DNA of 64,000 bases from Escherichia coli (GTDB taxonomy: Bacteria > Pseudomonadota > Gammaproteobacteria > Enterobacterales > Enterobacteriaceae), in assembly GCF_003018255.1 (NCBI RefSeq), contig NZ_CP027440.1. One strand, given 5' to 3'. Positions within the stretch are counted from its first letter, which is position 1. Each line of letters opens with the position of its first letter. Shown piece after piece: positions 4,493 to 46,522 of this stretch. The notes under the pieces were generated by a model. That model was given only the letters and a program-made list of their open reading frames with translations, was not told where the DNA came from and did no database searches. Made by a program: the position numbers and the translations under genes.

Positions 4493-5539
4493 TCAGTTAT
4501 CCTTTAATAACCTATACAGTTTTGTAGGGGTACATCCTGAGGATATTGTTAAGTTCGTAGCACGCCTTTTCCGCCCACCATCGTATAAACGAAAACCAGT
4601 AGTAGACGAATTTTCTGCGTCAAAAACTATAGACAGTATAACGTCCCCAGACTTTTTTTGCCATTCATATGTGCCGTTAGTTGGTTTTGTCATCTGTAGA
4701 CGCCAGTCAAGAACGCCATCACTTATAGCTGAGAGATCGTTTAGTACGTCTAGTACGGATTGATATCTTTCATTTGGATCTACATGAATGCATTTGTTTA
4801 CTATTGTTATCAATTTTTTATGTATGTGGGAAGGATACTCTTTTAATGGATAGGAGCCATTAATTATCGACTCTCTGAGTTGTTCAATCGTTCTAAATGC
4901 AGATCTTTCTCTTTCAAAATTATCATATCCAACACACATTCTATATATGGTTAATCCTGCCTGATATATGTCATATGTGAAATTATAATCATTTGTTGAT
5001 AAAGAAAAATATTCCGGTGGCACATGAAAATGATATCCAAACTCAGGCGCAGCTCTCGATTCCTCATTGACTAACTGAGACAATCCAAAGTCAGATAGCA
5101 TGGCCTCATTTCTGTTTGATATCATGATGTTATTAGGTTTTATATCAAAATGCATAAGACCTTTTGAGTGTATATGATAAAGCCCACTTAAAAATTGAAT
5201 AGAATACCGTATTATCTCCCTGCTCGTAAGATTAATCTTTTTTATTAATTGGTTTAGCGAACCATTATGATAAAATGGCATGGCTATATAGATATTGCTC
5301 TCACATTGAGCAGCATACTGAACTTGCACAATATTTGGATGTGCATGTTTATAGAGAAGCCTTGCTTCATTAAAGTAGTCGTCGTGGTTAGTGTTTTCTT
5401 TTTTTTCTATTTCTTTAATCACCAAGTCATGAGCTAGGTGTCTGTCATGAGCCAGATATACTTTTGAAAAACAACCCTGTTCTTCTAGATCACGAATCCA
5501 TTCGAATGCTACATCAGCTCTTTTGTATGGAGTCAGCAT
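4493..5539 (-). CDS. Hanks-type (eukaryotic-like) Ser/Thr protein kinase with ~80-aa C-terminal extension
   Basis: Motifs in order: LVIK42E (VAIK-like), E58, H130-F-D-I-K-P-N-N (HxDxKxxN catalytic loop), D150-F-G, VPPEY (APE-like). AT-rich. ATGCTGA overlap with the upstream gene. Confidence 0.85.
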   Translation of the reverse strand: MLTPYKRADVAFEWIRDLEEQGCFSKVYLAHDRHLAHDLVIKEIEKKENTNHDDYFNEARLLYKHAHPNIVQVQYAAQCESNIYIAMPFYHNGSLNQLIKKINLTSREIIRYSIQFLSGLYHIHSKGLMHFDIKPNNIMISNRNEAMLSDFGLSQLVNEESRAAPEFGYHFHVPPEYFSLSTNDYNFTYDIYQAGLTIYRMCVGYDNFERERSAFRTIEQLRESIINGSYPLKEYPSHIHKKLITIVNKCIHVDPNERYQSVLDVLNDLSAISDGVLDWRLQMTKPTNGTYEWQKKSGDVILSIVFDAENSSTTGFRLYDGGRKRRATNLTISSGCTPTKLYRLLKDN

Positions 5540-39778: not shown

Positions 39779-40362
39779 TGGCATTCAGAATGAGTGAACA
39801 ACCACGGACCATAAAAATTTATAATCTGCTGGCCGGAACTAATGAATTTATTGGTGAAGGTGACGCATATATTCCGCCTCATACAGGTCTGCCAGCAAAC
39901 AGTACCTATATTGCACCGCCAGATATTCCGGCTGGCTTCGTGGCTGTTTTCAACAGTGATGAGGCATCGTGGCATCTCGTTGAAGATCATCGGGGTAAAA
40001 CGGTTTATGACGTGGCTTCCGGCGACGCGTTATTTATTTCTGAACTCGGCTCATTACCGGAAAATGTCACCTGGTTATCCCCGGAAGGGGAGTTTCAGAA
40101 GTGGAACGGCACAGCCTGGGTGAAAGATGCAGAAGCAGAAAAACTATTCCGGATCCGGGAGGCGGAAGAAACAAAAAACAGCCTGATGCAGGCAGCGAAT
40201 GAGCATATTGCGCCACTTCAGGATGCTGTGGATCTGGAGATCGCAACGGAAGAAGAGGCGTCGTTGCTGGCAGCATGGAAGAAGTATCGGGTGTTGCTGA
40301 ACCGTGTTGATACATCAGTAGCACCGGATATTGAGTGGCCTGCTGTCCCTGTTATGGAGTAA
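39778..40362 (+). CDS. tfa: tail fibre assembly chaperone Tfa
   Basis: 194 aa, [43 protein letters not shown]...EWPAVPVME = lambda Tfa. Confidence 0.95.
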
Positions 40363-40465
40363 TCGTTTTGAGATACGCCGCATACACGTTGTATGCAATA
40401 ACGTGCTGCGGCTTGGTAAATTTTAGCTAGTTTCAGCAGGAGACATAAAAAACTTCAATATAAGA

Positions 40466-41254
40466 TTAAGCATCACGTATTGCCAATCTGATTTTTGACT
40501 GATACCAATTGGGGCCTTCTGCAATTATTTCTTCCTCAACATGCATGATGGGATGCATTTCAATTTCAGAGTTTTTGACTTTTAGATCTAGTCCATATTT
40601 TTTTGAAATTTGTAAAACTTCATTTTTGAAATCCTTATCTGCGAAAGGTGAAATCCTTATTTCTTCCAACAGATTGTTAAGAGATACAGGGACTAGTTTT
40701 CCCTTTACAGGTGGAGTGTTAAAGGTATTCTCTTGAAAAATAGCTCTAAACTCTTTTTCGTATTCGAAAGATGGTCTCTTGTTAAAGAATACATCTGATT
40801 CTGGATTGTATTGTTTTATCCAGAAATTTTTGACGTATTTTACGTGTTTTAATTGTAGTTTGTTTAAATTATTATTTTCAAGTTGGCTTTGGAGGTTTTT
40901 TTTCTTTGATTTTATGACAACGCCTTTAGCGGGGTTTTTACAATACAGCTTCCACATAGCTTCAGATTCATGTTCGTTACAATGCCAGCAACTTATATAT
41001 GTCCTCTCGCTTATTTCCTTAAGTGTCTTTAAATTGAATGCCATGAAAGGATCTAAGTCCATGCCGGCACCATGAGTAGCGCATAGTTTTTCCTGTGTCT
41101 CAATGAATTTTTTATAGCCAGTATGTCCCCAAGCAAATTCACCTTCGAATGGATCTTCAAAATTTTTTGCTGAGCAAAAAAATAAAGCATTTTGTTCGAG
41201 TAACATAGAGAATTTCTCTATGTCAAGGTATCGCCATATATACTCAGTGTGCAT
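40466..41254 (-). CDS. DUF2971-like protein (262 aa), accessory b-region gene
   Basis: IWRYLDIEKFSMLLEQNALFFCSAKNFEDPFEGEF and YISCWHCNEHESEAMWKLYC match my recollection of the DUF2971 signature (FNDPFE ... S.W...ES.AMW..Y). AAGGAG lies 6 nt before the ATG at 41254. AT-rich. Confidence 0.65.
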   Translation of the reverse strand: MHTEYIWRYLDIEKFSMLLEQNALFFCSAKNFEDPFEGEFAWGHTGYKKFIETQEKLCATHGAGMDLDPFMAFNLKTLKEISERTYISCWHCNEHESEAMWKLYCKNPAKGVVIKSKKKNLQSQLENNNLNKLQLKHVKYVKNFWIKQYNPESDVFFNKRPSFEYEKEFRAIFQENTFNTPPVKGKLVPVSLNNLLEEIRISPFADKDFKNEVLQISKKYGLDLKVKNSEIEMHPIMHVEEEIIAEGPNWYQSKIRLAIRDA

Positions 41255-41380
41255 GATAGCTCCTTGCAATATAACTATTTCTATCTGTTCATTTGTACTT
41301 AAAAAGGATTGAGTAGCCTGAACAGTTCTATCCGTAAATATACCAGATAGAAGAGTTGTACAATAACAAATCCTCCGTAT

Positions 41381-41421
41381 AAGAACCAGCCATAATAGTC
41401 TGGTTCTTAAGGTTTTTTTTT
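41381..41421 (+). terminator. hairpin plus T9 tract (plus-strand terminator-like) between the two minus-strand accessory genes
   Basis: AAGAACCAG-CCATAATAGT-CTGGTTCTT, then AAGG and nine T (41413-41421). Confidence 0.4.
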
Positions 41422-41427
41422 GTTCGA

Positions 41428-41437
41428 GGGGGGGGGG
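41428..41437. repeat. G10 homopolymer tract
   Basis: Ten consecutive G, 30 nt downstream of the 400-aa gene's stop and ~175 nt upstream of the DUF2971-like gene's start. Confidence 0.9.
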
Positions 41438-41466
41438 CTACGATTCGTCCCCATATCGGCGATAAA

Positions 41467-42669
41467 TTAGGCTTGTACCAACGCTTCTGTTTCTGTGAGT
41501 GAAATCTGATAGCGTTTTACTGCCTCAGCAAAGGCGTGCGCGGCATCTGCATTTGATACCATATATTCTTCAGTTACCCCTGTTTGAGAATGGAAAGTAA
41601 TATTTCCATAAATGCAAATAGGGATTTGGTAGTTGTCTTTAAAACGACGGTCTGGTGAGCCATTCTTATTCGTTTTCGCCCATGTATAACCATCTATGCG
41701 TGAGTCACTGGGAACACCTTCTTCCTCATGGAATCTTAGATATTCTGAACTAATTTGTAATTCGCGTAAATCAATCAGAGCGAATGCTCCATCAGCTCGT
41801 GGTATGACTGCAACTCCAGGATAAAGCAAAATATCGTCTCCATTTACATTTTCAAACCTCATCGCACGCCCTGTAAATTGAATGAGATCCGTTGAACTAA
41901 AATCAAAGGTAACTGGGTGACGATTAACAGACCGGGTTGCTAATGTTCTTTCAGCAAACTGGTCTGTAGCTTTATCTGCAGTAATATCCCATTTTTTGAC
42001 ACTCGATTTTAACATATCAAATGCATGGACCATCGCTGCATATGCGCGCTGTGAAGCATCACTGCTCTCGAATGTTATGGCTATTTTTGTGCTGTCTTCC
42101 CATGAAACTAGGCGAGATATCTCAGCTTGGGTTAGGGGGAGTAGTGTCTCAAGTTCTGCGATGCGTCGTTTGTAAAACCAACGGAATAGACTTGATTTGC
42201 GTCGAGCCAGCTCGCTTTTTTGTTTTGATTCTTCGGCAAGAGCCTCTTGAAGATCTGCTTTTATCTCTGCTCTTTGTTCTCGTGCTTTAGCAATCAAATC
42301 TCGTAAAGGTAAAAGGGAGGTACTTGTAAGGACTTCTACCGAAGCGCTGGATATTTCATTCATGCCAGCTACAGGCATATATATTTTAGCGTTCGATGGT
42401 GTGTTTTCTGGAGATGACCCAGACTCCAAATGAGGTTCTGTAGGGGCTGGATTTAATGGATTGGTAACTGAGTATCCATCATCATAGGGCAAGGTAGGTG
42501 TAGTATAAGATAAGCCTGTGCCCGGTAATCCGACAGTTGCTCTAACCCCTTTTTTACCAACATTGACAGTTGCGCCAGGCACGCCAATGCTTGCACTTAT
42601 TCCACGCTTGCCAATGTTGAGTCGAACGCCAGGAAATAGAGTAAAGGTTTGTCTGAAACGAAGAGACAT
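41467..42669 (-). CDS. DUF4236-like N-terminal domain protein with ~340-aa uncharacterised C-terminal region
   Basis: MSLRFRQTFTLFPGVRLNIGKRGISASIGVPGATVNVGKKGVRATVGLPGTGLSYT matches the remembered DUF4236 repeat pattern. A Pro-rich linker, a predicted coiled-coil (REQRAEIKADLQEALAEESKQKSELARRK) and a beta-rich C-terminus follow. Confidence 0.65.
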   Translation of the reverse strand: MSLRFRQTFTLFPGVRLNIGKRGISASIGVPGATVNVGKKGVRATVGLPGTGLSYTTPTLPYDDGYSVTNPLNPAPTEPHLESGSSPENTPSNAKIYMPVAGMNEISSASVEVLTSTSLLPLRDLIAKAREQRAEIKADLQEALAEESKQKSELARRKSSLFRWFYKRRIAELETLLPLTQAEISRLVSWEDSTKIAITFESSDASQRAYAAMVHAFDMLKSSVKKWDITADKATDQFAERTLATRSVNRHPVTFDFSSTDLIQFTGRAMRFENVNGDDILLYPGVAVIPRADGAFALIDLRELQISSEYLRFHEEEGVPSDSRIDGYTWAKTNKNGSPDRRFKDNYQIPICIYGNITFHSQTGVTEEYMVSNADAAHAFAEAVKRYQISLTETEALVQA

Positions 42670-43114
42670 AAAGTTATACCTATGTAGTTTTGTACACCAA
42701 AGTTCGAAATGTTTTTATATGAATATTGAGCTGATTCATAAGATTATTCCTAGCTCATCTTCATTCCGCCATGATACAACGGTTTGCTTGCAGGTGAAGA
42801 AAAACGTAAAAGCCCAATAATGATTGGTGGGCTGGTGGAGTTGAAACCGCAGGCTCGTCGTCTGCAAGAAAGTGCTGCGGCTGGCTGGTCAGCTTCTGAT
42901 AGTGAGAATATTGAATGATTTCAAGCTGTTATCGATTTTGCGTATTTTTTGTATGGGAGGATTTGTGCCTCCTCCCATCGGTCCTCCATGACTTTACGCC
43001 ACTGTCTCTAGGGCTGCTATGTGCCAGAAGCTGACATGGCTAGTCCCTAGGCACATTGACCAGCAGGTCATCCATCCCTTAACATATCGTTATGAAATTT
43101 AAAGGATCGATGTT

Positions 43115-43744
43115 ATGGCTTATGAATTAACTTACAGACCCCTCGAATACGGATCGAATGAAAATTATCTTCGCAGAAGTTTGAAAGACCCTTCATTACT
43201 AATTCCTGAAAAAGAGATAGGATGTTTTCTAGTTCTCCAATCCTCATATGCACTACATGAAACTATTGGACTTTCAGCCCAAAACCTAGATATTTCATGG
43301 CAGTCTAACCAAAATTACTTATCGTCAAATTGTGATGGTGAGGCCCCTCTAGCTTGTTATCCTATTTATTTGATTACAGTTGGAGATGATGAAAATGAAA
43401 GGCTTGTTTACATCGGCAAGACATCATCGAAGAGCTCACGATTTTCTTCAGGCCATAGCGCAATTACTAAGTTACACCATCCTAAATATGACAATTTGTC
43501 AAAGCGTATATATTTGTGCTGCGTTGTTTTTTTAAAAAACAGCCAAACCATCCCAATAGAATGGATTAAGCCTTTTGATTTCGCTGAGAAACTATTGAGT
43601 GAATTTGAAGCGAACTTGATTTATTGGAATAAACCAGAGTTGAATACGCAACATATGAAGAAAGAACCTACATTTGAATATGGGCAAGTTCATGCACAAA
43701 ATGTAACTGGCGCAACGTATTTTTGGCATGATAAATTCATTTAG
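43115..43744 (+). CDS. GIY-YIG-like nuclease domain protein (209 aa) with ~80-aa N-terminal extension
   Basis: P83-I-Y...(13 aa)...Y99-I-G-K-T...R109...H114...E163/E165...N172 aligns with I-TevI GIYQIKN...VYVGSA..R..H...ERENFWIKELN. AAAGGA SD. Confidence 0.6.
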   Translation: MAYELTYRPLEYGSNENYLRRSLKDPSLLIPEKEIGCFLVLQSSYALHETIGLSAQNLDISWQSNQNYLSSNCDGEAPLACYPIYLITVGDDENERLVYIGKTSSKSSRFSSGHSAITKLHHPKYDNLSKRIYLCCVVFLKNSQTIPIEWIKPFDFAEKLLSEFEANLIYWNKPELNTQHMKKEPTFEYGQVHAQNVTGATYFWHDKFI

Positions 43745-44171
43745 AACTATATAAACAAAACTTGAGTTAATTCTCTATTTTCCGCACTTTTTTTCCAATG
43801 AGTTCTACATATTGGTCAAGATTGTGCTCAAGGGCGCAATAAACTTAGTATTGCGTCTGTAATTCGCTCAGACTGTGTGAAAACGGTTTAAGCTTCAGAG
43901 GTGAATGCAAAAGAGGCTGACGCCTGCGCTTTTAAGTAAAATCTGCATCATCTTTCTATGTAAATTTTCTAAGAAGTCATCTAAACGCGTGACCTTCTGT
44001 CAGCAATCAGAGTTTTCATACAGCCTGCGTTCGAAGCTGCCCTTGGGCCCGCCTATGGCAGTTGAGTGCCAGAAGCGGACATTTTAACTAATATTCAGCA
44101 TGTTTATCATTATGTCACACGCAAAATGATAAATTAATATATTCAGAGGATTTTTTAACTCAAAAATGGCG

Positions 44172-44199
44172 TTGTAATTCAATGAACCATGCCTATAAT
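44172..44199 (+). promoter_or_regulatory. candidate sigma-70 promoter for the DUF3800-like gene
   Basis: TTGTAA-16 nt-TATAAT, ending 39 nt upstream of the TTG start at 44238. Confidence 0.35.
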
Positions 44200-44237
44200 C
44201 TAACATAAAAATAATATATCATTGAAAGGATAAGGCT

Positions 44238-44972
44238 TTGAATATTTACATTGATGAGTCGATACACGAGGAGTTTGGGTTTATGATCTTGGCTTATGTA
44301 GTTTGTAATCAGGATCCTCAGTCTGATATATACAAGATTCTTTCAGAACATTCAGTTGATGAACATCACTCATGCGCAAGAATGGATAAATCTGAATCTT
44401 TAAGAAATTTGAGGAGTAATCTTATTTCCTACTTAAACGCAAATTGTCGATGGGGGGCATTTATTATGCCAAGTGAGTATCGCCATCGTTCTTATGAGGA
44501 TGTGTCTTTTTTATTAAGCTTATTGATTAAGAATTTTCCAGACAGGAAAGGGAATATTTTTTTCGATGAAGGTATCATAAACCCTACAGAAGCTCTCAGT
44601 CTATGCTCTGATGAAGTCAAAGTTATAACATGCTCATCCCATGAAGTTTGTGGGATACAACTTGCTGATCTAGTAGCATCTTTTAGTGGTGTTAGGTTGA
44701 GAGAAACAATAACAGGAAAAGCAAAAATTTTAACTTACGGTTACGACTTCGGCTATGAGCCCCCAATAGAATCCCCGCTTGGATTTGAGCTTTTTGCTAC
44801 ACTTCGACAATCTATGCTCAGGGGAAATGAACCTCTTGGGAATGAGATGCCTGAATTTGCCACATTTAAAACTATTAATAAAGGATTGGTTTTGTCGAAA
44901 AACTTAACAACTGAATTTAGTCAGTTGGCATTAAAAACCTTTGGGGAAGTGTACTTAGGTTGCATCCATTAA
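44238..44972 (+). CDS. DUF3800-like protein (244 aa, TTG start)
   Basis: N-terminal NIYIDESIHEEFG and later GIQLADLVA match the remembered DUF3800 hallmarks (Y.DESG ... Q.AD). AAGGA lies 8 nt upstream of the TTG. Confidence 0.6.
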   Translation: MNIYIDESIHEEFGFMILAYVVCNQDPQSDIYKILSEHSVDEHHSCARMDKSESLRNLRSNLISYLNANCRWGAFIMPSEYRHRSYEDVSFLLSLLIKNFPDRKGNIFFDEGIINPTEALSLCSDEVKVITCSSHEVCGIQLADLVASFSGVRLRETITGKAKILTYGYDFGYEPPIESPLGFELFATLRQSMLRGNEPLGNEMPEFATFKTINKGLVLSKNLTTEFSQLALKTFGEVYLGCIH

Positions 44973-45220
44973 ATGTAATATTACTATTTATCAATTACTA
45001 GCAAAATTAAGCTAGGTGTTCCTAAGAATATAGGTGACGATGATACAACTGACTTCCGCTTTTCGCTCATAACAGACATTCACTACAGTTATGGTAGAAG
45101 GTATGCATGCTGGGTGGGGAAAGTATGAAGGAAAAGAAGACTGCCGCGCCGTTTGTCGTCACATTTATCTTCATTGGCTATGCAAGTCGTAATACAAGGT
45201 GGGACAAAACAGAGACACAT

Positions 45221-45251
45221 AAGGTCTCACAAAGGTCTGCAAGGCCTCACA
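45221..45251 (+). repeat. three tandem ~10-bp repeats, candidate integrase arm-type binding sites in the att P arm
   Basis: AAGGTCTCACA / AAGGTCTGC / AAGGCCTCACA in helical phase, ~190-220 bp from the icd junction in AT-rich DNA. Confidence 0.3.
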
Positions 45252-45440
45252 TGTATTGAGATGTTAATAAAATGTAGACTTGTAATTTGGATATAAATGG
45301 TAGAGAAAACCTTTCCCCAAAATAAAAACGAACGTCAATGAAATCAAACGGTTGAATAAAGTTGATTTTGGCTAATAAAAAGACAATAAAATAATTTTTA
45401 TCATTAAATATCAATGAATTGAACTTAATGTTTTTATATA

Positions 45441-45605
45441 CTGTTACGCCATATGGGCTGGACTGAAGCCGCAGACCTGATTGTTAAAGGTATGGAAGGC
45501 GCAATCAACGCCAAGACTGTAACCTATGACTTCGAACGTCTGATGGAAGGCGCTAAACTGCTGAAATGCAGCGAGTTTGGTGATGCGATCATCAAGAACA
45601 TGTAA
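45441..45605 (+). pseudogene. icdC: displaced native 3' end of isocitrate dehydrogenase gene (icdC), marks attR
   Basis: Translates [54 protein letters not shown], the last ~54 residues of Icd, with no upstream icd sequence. 165 bp, as for the K-12 e14 icdC. Confidence 0.9.
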
Positions 45606-45628
45606 TCTCTACATGTGTTAAATATTGA

Positions 45629-45660
45629 AACGGGCGTATAACACGCCCGTTGTTTTATTT
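45629..45660 (+). terminator. icd rho-independent terminator
   Basis: AACGGGCGT-ATAAC-ACGCCCGTT followed by GTTTTATTT. Confidence 0.8.
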
Positions 45661-45707
45661 ATGTGGATATTATTAATAGCATGTCGAGCATATTTATATG
45701 AAGCCCA

Positions 45708-46031
45708 TTACTTGAGTCCATATGGGCATATTTTTATAATACAACTATTATGCAAACATTTATTTGGTATTTCGCTTTCTCCAGGAGGACACTCTTGACT
45801 GCTTTTGAGTAAACTCCATAAATCCTTGTTAAATGGTGCGATGTTATAAATAGTAATAGGGTATTCTTTATCCTTAAGGATAATACCAGACTTAACCGGT
45901 GTAAATATACTTCCAGGAGGGAGAAATATAGTAGATTGATACCAGATGATCATTTTCATATCACCCCATATGGCTGAAAAAGATATGCCGCATGTAGGTT
46001 GAATTAACGTGTCAATTACTATCCACTTCAT
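45708..46031 (-). CDS. iraM: anti-adaptor protein IraM (RpoS stabiliser)
   Basis: 107 aa, [69 protein letters not shown]... matches K-12 IraM. Confidence 0.9.
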
Positions 46032-46472
46032 TTGTTATGTCTTATCCCACGGTATTTAATATAGTTCATTAGGATGTTCATTTCTTGATTTTGCATATGA
46101 GTATATTATCCCCTCAAAAATATTAATTAAAAATTAAAACCGTTGCCTATATAAAACAAAATTTAAAGCAAGAAATCTCAATAGATATTAAACAAAATGA
46201 TATTTAGTGAAAACAATAAATTATTCACTTCGTTTTAGATTTGTTTAGCTATAATGTTATACATTCAAATGACTGAACATCATGTAATTAAAACATAGCC
46301 TTTATGCTACTTTGTGCCAATTTGCTAAATATTATGGTTGCATTTTTATATAACGATAATAATGAATATAAGCATGACATGAGAATAAGGTTTCAATTTT
46401 TGAGTTATATAGGAATGGTTAAACCCGTTCCTGACTAAAATACATATAATCGGATGATGACTAAACCAAAAC

Positions 46473-46522
46473 ACATGTGCGTTAAGTATTGAAACGGGCG
46501 TATGGCACGCCCGTTGGTTTTA
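46473..46522 (+). repeat. second diverged copy of the icd 3' UTR/terminator
   Basis: ACATGTGCGTTAAGTATTGAAACGGGCGTATGGCACGCCCGTTGGTTTTA versus ACATGTGTTAAATATTGAAACGGGCGTATAACACGCCCGTTGTTTTA at 45611-45657. Confidence 0.85.

Follow-up and report, generated by a model that had tools for sequence, protein, structure and literature searches.

The DUF3800 family is widespread and turns up again and again beside nucleic acid-based immune modules, namely, type VII retrons, Cas12a2 and Cas12a3 loci, Cas13 loci, and orphan RNA motifs. It has been modeled on RNase H2 templates and proposed to be the toxic or effector nuclease of type VII retrons, in a study that also describes the family by an N-terminal D-E and a Q-x-x-D motif (Mestre et al. 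2020, PMC7736814). The 2025 CRISPR classification refers to DUF3800 as "an RNase H fold nuclease" accessory to V-A2 and VI-F loci (PMC12669027). TPR-DUF3800 proteins, with an AlphaFold-predicted RNase H fold, occur in Cas12a2/Cas12a3 and type VI loci (PMC10910872, PMC12669027, bioRxiv 10.64898/2026.01.16.699850), DUF3800 is also an accessory of Cas13 loci (PMC10910872, PMC12669027), and eleven unrelated RNA motifs cluster around DUF3800 genes (PMC5737381). Here we describe a DUF3800 gene that stands alone in a prophage of Escherichia coli (contig NZ_CP027440.1, assembly GCF_003018255.1). "The window" below means the whole 64,000-nucleotide (nt) stretch of that contig that was analyzed, for which a first-pass annotation made from the sequence alone was available.

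We infer with high confidence that this gene encodes a functional, metal-dependent nuclease of RNase H fold that the prophage carries as cargo. What it does is much more evenly balanced. Of the possible roles, the best supported is anti-phage defense, in which the nuclease would shield the lysogen from other phages or mobile DNA, and this could as easily prove wrong as right; the complete statement, an RNase H-fold nuclease cargo that protects against phages, stands on the same even footing. The gene adds one more member, on a distinct branch of stand-alone proteins, to a family that is known but functionally uncharacterized. The coding sequence (CDS), taken from the open reading frame (ORF) list, and its expression signals are as follows.

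44238-44972, + strand: DUF3800 CDS, 244 amino acids (aa), TTG start (ORF list and Pfam; RefSeq has the identical protein, WP_001028881.1)
44225-44230, + strand: Shine-Dalgarno sequence AAAGGA, ending 7 nt ahead of the TTG (read from the sequence)
44172-44199, + strand: sigma-70-like promoter TTGTAA-16-TATAAT (predicted; best site of the region, 10/12)

The sequence and the ORF list both contain the 244-aa frame with the TTG start that the first-pass annotation had reported, and the AAGGA it had read as a Shine-Dalgarno sequence is found at 44226-44230, 7 nt upstream. Because an in-frame TAA lies two codons ahead of the TTG and the next ATG (M26) comes too late, deleting strand beta-1 together with D6 and E7, the TTG is the only start that gives the conserved N terminus. 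All three enterobacterial copies whose start was read (Pectobacterium, Enterobacter, and Citrobacter) retain it, while in nine of the ten more distant homologs read the equivalent codon is ATG, followed by N-I-Y-I-D-E-S or a near variant. The AAAGGA is unchanged in seven of seven aligned cassettes.

The predicted promoter is the sole 10/12 match within 42600-45700 (3.1 kb), all others being 9/12, and a score of 10/12 or higher would come up by chance in the 172 nt upstream (37% GC spacer) with P ~0.035. It rises above chance because the Pectobacterium, Enterobacter, Citrobacter, and Yersinia copies (five genera with E. coli) retain both hexamers while bases near them are changed in the Citrobacter copy. 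The near-consensus promoter proposed earlier is therefore upheld as the best-scoring site of the region with conserved hexamers, as is the view of the gene as an autonomous unit, whose own predicted promoter, Shine-Dalgarno sequence, and TTG are all conserved with the cassette. A terminator scan found no intrinsic-terminator-like site on the + strand before 45629. A 9- to 10-bp inverted repeat at ~44101-44135 (z ~ -2) was considered as an operator and rejected, as it is not kept in the Pectobacterium, Yersinia, and Enterobacter cassettes.

Membership in DUF3800 (PF12686) is supported by a Pfam score of 31 bits against a gathering cut-off of 21 (E 4.9e-7), with the match spanning residues 2-148 and profile positions 1-144 of 149; RefSeq gives the same name ("DUF3800 domain-containing protein"), in agreement with the original assignment. 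Both family motifs are present, the N-terminal D-E as D6 and E7 and the late Q-x-x-D as Q141 and D144. The IYIDES and IQLADL stretches on which the first-pass annotation relied are likewise there (residues 3-8 and 140-145), but the D154A mutant that it suggested is off by ten: residue 154 is Leu, and the motif Asp is D144. PHROGs and NCBIfam gave no match for the protein.

Homologs of 244-275 aa align with the protein from the first to the last residue (40 sequences from many phyla, including Gammaproteobacteria, Alphaproteobacteria, Desulfobacterota, Bacteroidota, Cyanobacteria, Acidobacteriota, and others). Sixteen residues are invariant among the 40: D6, H10, E42, R59, R82, D110, G139, Q141, A143, D144, K163, G172, E184, R190, C242, and H244. 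E7 is nearly invariant (at least 90% conserved), and the aligned proteins end in ...YLGCIH, with G241 and I243 nearly as constant as the Cys and His. Since the Pfam model stops at residue 148, the C-terminal ~95 residues (149-244), which carry the last six of the invariant positions (K163 to H244), are specific to this branch. The branch is a small and divergent part of DUF3800, given that the subfamily profile finds only 492 clusters among 1.84 billion representatives; the best 150 of the 492 are all single-domain proteins of ~250 aa that match up to the C terminus. Among seven enterobacterial orthologs the ratio of nonsynonymous to synonymous substitution rates (dN/dS) is 0.11-0.39, about 0.2, and the reading frame is intact in all seven copies compared. 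By these sequence comparisons the gene is real and under purifying selection.

An AlphaFold2 model built with the 40-sequence alignment (pLDDT 93.5, pTM 0.90) places the protein in the RNase H-like fold. When it was searched with Foldseek against the whole PDB, the top matches were 14 type-2 RNase H chains (best E 3.6e-5, probability 1.00; TM-score 0.43-0.5 over ~140-180 residues), a likeness at the fold level only. The Foldseek matches in the PDB included no solved DUF3800 structure, and BFVD held no significant viral structural relative. The first-pass annotation had said that DUF3800 has no assigned function and had guessed at an RNase H-like fold. The former holds as far as experiments go, but earlier publications had reported both the RNase H fold and the links to retrons, CRISPR loci, and RNA motifs, so the structural guess was right but not new.

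The RNase HII tetrad consists of an adjacent D-E on beta-1, a D at the end of beta-4, and a D in the following helix. In the AlphaFold2 model, D6 and E7 lie on beta-1, D110 ends the strand 105-110, and D144 sits in the helix after the strand 127-132; D6-E7-D110-D144 is thus a putative DEDD center, laid out in the model as in RNase HII. Possible roles of E42, H10, and the C-terminal Cys-x-His include a tail reaching the active site and a second metal site.

The gene moves as part of a short cassette, which is bounded as follows.

44066-45077, + strand: DUF3800 cassette (left half-site, promoter, gene, right site), 35% GC, delimited by the limits of DNA homology
44053-44082, + strand: left junction site, spacer GTGCCAG at 44066-44072, arm AAGCGGAC at 44073-44080, outer arm degenerate
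45052-45077, - strand: right junction site, in inverted orientation to the left one, with arm ACTTCCGCTTT, spacer TCGCTCA (TGAGCGA when reverse-complemented), and arm TAACAGAC

Its DNA is 85-94% identical to loci in Pectobacterium, Enterobacter, and Citrobacter that lie in different contexts. The homology to these loci begins sharply at 44066-44071 and ends at 44977-45077, and the contexts outside are unrelated. Copies from Yersinia, Edwardsiella, and Serratia align across the same span, and the cassette is known from at least five other enterobacterial genera. Its 35% GC compares with 56% in the structural genes of the prophage.

The left homology limit is the 17-mer GTGCCAGAAGCGGACAT, and the right site, ACTTCCGCTTT-TCGCTCA-TAACAGAC, is an imperfect inverted copy of the left one; a full site is a palindrome of ~24 bp made up of GTCCGCTTT, a 7-nt center, and AAGCGGAC. 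The left site is repeated directly (30 nt) at 43008-43037, ahead of a 209-aa ORF. In IMG/VR the exact 17-mer occurs 72 times, nearly always between genes of viral contigs, where 42 different sequences follow it on the right and 46 precede it on the left, and an arms-only search returned at least 120 loci. Among the matches listed, the centers fall into the classes GTGCCA[G/A], GAGCGA[A/G], GGGTCA[A/T], and others. Roughly half of E. coli genomes contain a match to a 32-nt query designed around the site. An inward-facing partner, mostly of the GAGCGA class, lies 0.3-3.5 kb downstream in 21 of the 24 distinct contexts whose sequence was long enough, compared with 4 of 24 positional controls and 7 of 24 in shuffled DNA. 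A few compensatory arm variants were seen, in a sample biased by how it was collected.

Two contigs have different cassettes, of 2.7 and 3.0 kb, between the same site pair, and one of the two recurs elsewhere with homology that ends inside the sites. Some ~2,400 E. coli genomes have the DNA on the right side of the cassette but not the DUF3800 gene, with homology starting at or within ~145 bp downstream of the right site and, for most of the matches listed, exactly at ~45055. Three different cassettes stop at the same right site (those of the window and of loci L268 and L269), and in the Qin prophage of K-12 (L163) a site pair flanks flxA, next to relBE; such sites occur at L140, L155, L157, L092, L268, L269, and L090 as well. 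The sites enclose unrelated cargo: flxA, a gene for an EMARD/DUF7380 protein, one for a 256-aa hypothetical protein, and further cassettes with one gene or a few. DarT, AbiC, AbiJ, RelA/SpoT-like, SMEK, NUDIX, and GNAT proteins are among those encoded on the cargo side, while the other side has UmuC-like polymerases, tail-fiber assembly genes, and others. Because the breakpoints of unrelated cargo share these sites, the sites are general junctions of cargo exchange.

How the exchange comes about allows two proposals. Tentatively, and with more doubt than belief, we suggest that cassettes of 0.4-3.4 kb with one to a few genes are swapped by a dedicated site-specific recombinase, a natural analog of recombinase-mediated cassette exchange with heterospecific sites. 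The exchange proposed, an unlikely one on present evidence, would use an inverted site pair with arms GTCCGCTTT/AAGCGGAC and a center of GTGCCAG at one end and GAGCGA[A/G] at the other, in enterobacterial prophages and islands alike. The DUF3800 gene may be one of the cargoes of such a system, and on this unlikely reading its protein would be the first DUF3800 nuclease with a stand-alone immune function to come from a tractable host. What favors a recombinase is the arm-center-arm layout with two different centers, which fits heterospecific cassette exchange. Alternatively, phage RecT/Red-type enzymes could recombine over short homology on a conserved hairpin, a route favored by the RecT gene of the prophage itself and by the precedent of the PeSL cassettes of T4-type phages (PMC2839356). 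Two other explanations of the sites were rejected. DUF3800 is not the transposase of its own inverted repeats, since the same sites flank unrelated cargo; the full palindromes at both junctions, rather than bare ends, and the single copy of the gene also speak against it. Nor are the border hairpins intrinsic terminators, as they lack a U-tract and were not called by the terminator scan. In the literature, of which our coverage was incomplete, we found no earlier description of the sites, only the analogous PeSL.

The prophage that carries the cassette is lambdoid and fills the first ~45 kb of the window. Its left part encodes RecT, a YqaJ exonuclease, a Ser/Thr kinase, a cI-like repressor, and replication protein O, and its right part encodes lambda-like head and tail proteins, Lom, a tail fiber, and a tail-fiber assembly protein. 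The tail-fiber assembly gene and icd are separated by a 5-kb block whose GC content is 34-43%, compared with 56% in the structural genes, and which contains four cargo genes: the DUF3800 ORF and the first three listed here, followed by the marker of the attR side.

40466-41269, - strand: DUF2971 gene
41467-42669, - strand: DUF4236 gene
43115-43744, + strand: 209-aa ORF, in a neighboring cassette (43021-44052) that begins with the same border site
45453-45605, + strand: displaced icd 3' fragment, attR-side marker (end of the ORF translation; RefSeq partial isocitrate dehydrogenase)

In the RefSeq annotation, iraM, ycgX, and bluR come after the icd 3' fragment, and the prophage therefore sits in icd. 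The DUF3800 gene is the last CDS ahead of the fragment in the same annotation, which bears out its earlier description as the attR-proximal gene; the attL side of the prophage falls outside the window.

The rest of the cargo block deserves a few remarks. The 209-aa ORF matches GIY-YIG below the threshold (E 0.002), strongly matches PHROG 16890, a family without a known function, and may encode another cargo nuclease. A 36-nt repeat (CCGCA...TGCTGCGGCT; 81% identical copies at 40378-40413 and 42847-42882) brackets the DUF2971 and DUF4236 pair and may represent another type of border for cargo blocks. In Neptunomonas, too, a faint DUF2971 ORF is found directly upstream of the DUF3800 homolog. 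Just before the block, a full-length match to the Rfam family IS009 (203 bits) at 40121-40319 (+ strand) overlaps the 3' end of the tail-fiber assembly gene. Elsewhere in the prophage, between the recombination genes and the repressor, the kinase is a 348-aa eukaryotic-type Ser/Thr protein kinase at 4493-5539 (- strand; Pkinase E 1e-46), which we take to be reminiscent of the Stk exclusion kinase of phage 933W.

The genes around DUF3800 homologs point to an accessory setting. Their immediate neighbors include seven integrases, components of type I, II, and III restriction-modification systems, and Shedu, AbiL, PARIS AriA, Old, Septu PtuA, and MADS proteins, a set characteristic of defense islands and integrative elements. 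Of the close homologs, one in an Edwardsiella prophage adjoins SIR2+DUF87, one in Yersinia adjoins a CHAT protease and an EMARD protein, and one in Serratia adjoins VapBC. The neighborhood check that had been proposed for DUF3800 thus found surroundings rich in integrases and defense genes; at the level of gene content this supports an accessory or defense context and stand-alone action without proving defense. Pnkp ligase adjoins three homologs, and in two of these Hen1 does too. If RNA is what the nuclease damages, this pairing with RNA-repair genes would deserve notice, although the gene content of the islands could have produced it by chance.

No constant companion emerged. Clustering of the ORFs within 3.5 kb of 84 homolog loci yielded no conserved partner gene, and the sole recurrent neighbor family is an HNH_2 protein at 14 loci of one Rhodobacteraceae lineage. 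In that lineage a 299-aa ORF is followed, with a 0-nt gap, by DUF3800 (L029, L037, L039, L040, L042, L047, L052, L057, L060, L061, L063, and others). This ORF is probably the HNH_2 endonuclease of the neighbor scan, and it suggests a two-gene variant of the system in the Rhodobacteraceae clade. The 209-aa ORF was rejected as a partner, being unrelated to the ORF upstream of the Neptunomonas homolog and not kept beside DUF3800 elsewhere. The annotated neighborhood contains no cas gene or CRISPR array. At the Rfam gathering score the whole window contains no retron, CRISPR, or DUF3800-associated RNA, and 22 subfamily loci from other phyla contain no DUF3800-associated RNA. Within 41000-46500 no Rfam family matched the cassette flanks even at E <= 10, DUF3800-I to XI, drum, and skipping-rope included, and the flanks fold no better than shuffles (z +0.15, -0.37, and +0.69). 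The lack of a relevant match in the scans, permissive and gathering alike, and the shuffle-like folding led us to reject an RNA partner.

The gene is found in 31 of 5,426 E. coli genomes, is missing from most icd prophages, and is at least 99% identical over the matched DNA in 30 of its E. coli carriers. At least 29 of the 31 carry a single copy; in two further genomes the second matching place results from an IS5 insertion that splits the query. Searches of 50,697 phage records and of a plasmid database gave no DNA match to the cassette, and most relatives are located in chromosomal islands. At loci L084 (strain S1-KEN-03-A) and L085 (strain 99RCEF), ISKpn26, an insertion sequence (IS) of the IS5 family, lies just past the DUF3800 stop codon in one lineage, and another strain is without the whole four-gene block between the tail-fiber assembly gene and the IS, so the block is dispensable.

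Whom the nuclease benefits is the point on which the rival explanations differ. The gene could serve the phage, either in replication or recombination (removal of RNA primers or R-loops, processing of intermediates) or in counter-defense against the multicopy single-stranded DNA (msDNA) of retrons and against guide or signaling RNAs. An RNase H2-like fold fits the processing of RNA:DNA hybrids, the prophage encodes its own RecT/YqaJ recombination genes, and DUF3800 is elsewhere physically linked to RNA and msDNA systems (PMC5737381, PMC7736814). Yet the gene belongs to neither the early nor the late operons but to the AT-rich cargo block by attR, where it has its own promoter; the same cassette occurs outside prophages, in an island among core genes of Serratia and in a Yersinia island; and the empty phage and BFVD searches and the chromosomal location of most relatives are hardly what a phage function predicts. 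We consider such a role unlikely. Improbable, too, is a selfish or tolerated toxic nuclease that rides the mobile cassette to the benefit of neither host nor phage. The weak TTG, conserved in the three enterobacterial copies read, is what one would expect of a protein harmful at high dose, and the sporadic, rare distribution and an IS5-associated deletion without obvious consequence are of a piece with it; set against this, a dN/dS of ~0.2 and the constancy of 16 residues from phylum to phylum point to an activity under selection, and the cassette has no antitoxin-like partner ORF.

We see still less reason to think that the protein works only with a noncoding RNA from the cassette flanks (170 nt upstream and 105 nt downstream), after the manner of DUF3800-I to -XI. 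Eleven unrelated RNA motifs have been linked to DUF3800 genes, the drum and skipping-rope associations included (PMC5737381), and the noncoding flanks here move with the gene at 85-94% identity. However, such RNA families are missing from the flanks (E <= 10) and from the window and the 22 subfamily loci (gathering score), the folding is that of shuffled sequence, and in many distant homologs the gaps on both sides are shorter than 100 nt. It would be surprising indeed if the ORF were a decaying or unexpressed remnant: the non-ATG start, AT-rich DNA prone to H-NS silencing, and the want of a terminator-like site on its own strand before 45629 are outweighed by a frame intact in seven of seven copies at a dN/dS of 0.11-0.39, by DNA at least 99% identical over the gene in 30 E. 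coli genomes, and by full-length alignment to other phyla up to the invariant C terminus.

A number of results also weigh against a defensive nuclease. Alignment of the subfamily profile with an RNase HII profile (E. coli, Thermotoga, and Staphylococcus sequences, verified against the PDB) by hhalign gave no sequence homology (probability 0.2%), a profile search of PDB chains gave no sequence match, and Pfam RNase_HII did not match the protein. A sequence bridge to RNase HII was rejected after the two negative profile searches, and the DEDD equivalence, for want of sequence-level homology, rests on fold and topology rather than on a measured superposition. The rarity of the gene and its IS5-associated loss in one strain make it dispensable. 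The surroundings of the promoter-like site are AT-rich, and in DNA of this kind, which H-NS may silence, similar sites are frequent (15 were found with 10.2 expected, so the class is not enriched). PADLOC returned a weak match to the candidate PDC-M04A whose best stretch covers residues 1-37 only (E 6.5e-5); no full-length PDC-M04A match was obtained, and the neighbors are without a PADLOC match, which places the gene outside PDC-M04. Finally, the searchable literature yielded no experimental work on any DUF3800 protein.

The interpretation we prefer nonetheless remains defense of the lysogen by a cargo nuclease. The protein would be a stand-alone metal-dependent enzyme, its RNase H-like fold closest to type-2 RNase H and its putative center D6-E7-D110-D144, and it would be delivered as single-gene cargo (a "moron") in a 1.0-kb AT-rich cassette. 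With its own sigma-70 promoter, Shine-Dalgarno sequence, and weak TTG, the gene could be expressed at a low level while the prophage is repressed. That a good promoter is coupled to a weak but conserved start codon suggests that little of the protein is made, as with effectors that do harm. Its target would be a nucleic acid structure that arises during infection. Our leading guess for this substrate is an RNA-containing duplex or structured RNA/DNA, because of the likeness to type-2 RNase H and the pairing of the family with msDNA, with effectors guided by CRISPR RNA, and with structured RNAs.

The window copy comes close to the simplest test case for the family, one partnerless 244-aa protein of E. 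coli in a 1-kb cassette with native expression signals. The cassette border sites are a more novel lead than the DUF3800 gene and are worth a separate study: they show the breakpoints of cargo and defense gene shuffling between enterobacterial prophages at nucleotide level and could serve for systematic discovery of new cargo genes.

Among the systems described so far, the effector of type VII retrons shares with the protein the Pfam family, the modeling on RNase H2, and a predicted role as a defense nuclease. A reverse transcriptase and msr/msd are present there, whereas annotation, Pfam, and Rfam scans show none near the window gene, and the retron-linked DUF3800 is described as having DEED and no Q in QxxD, whereas the window protein keeps Q141 and D110. 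The TPR-DUF3800 proteins of Cas12a2/Cas12a3 and type VI loci likewise place a DUF3800 domain with an RNase H fold in defense loci, but as a TPR fusion; the window protein is single-domain and stand-alone, without TPR. Against the type-2 RNases H themselves (RNase HII, RNase HIII, and H2A), it differs in its C-terminal region and reaches a TM-score of only ~0.43-0.5. Within Pfam DUF3800 it is typical in its D-E and Q-x-x-D motifs and its size (~245 aa) and is set apart by the subfamily-specific extension 149-244.

The genetic setting has precedents as well. As for e14, icd is the integration gene of the window prophage. A moron consists of a promoter, a gene, and a terminator; the window gene has a conserved promoter-like site and stands out at 35% against 56% GC, but no intrinsic-terminator-like site precedes 45629 on the + strand. 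In phage morons and PeSL cassettes (Arbiol et al. 2010, PMC2839356), as here, a single accessory gene with its own promoter (here a predicted one) lies between conserved modules, and short stem-loop motifs at the cassette borders coincide with recombination breakpoints, as do the sites in the window. The border motif of the window differs in being a palindrome of ~24 bp without a promoter or U-tract, arranged as an inverted pair with two 7-nt centers, and where PeSL belong to T4-type phages, the window sites belong to temperate enterobacterial elements.

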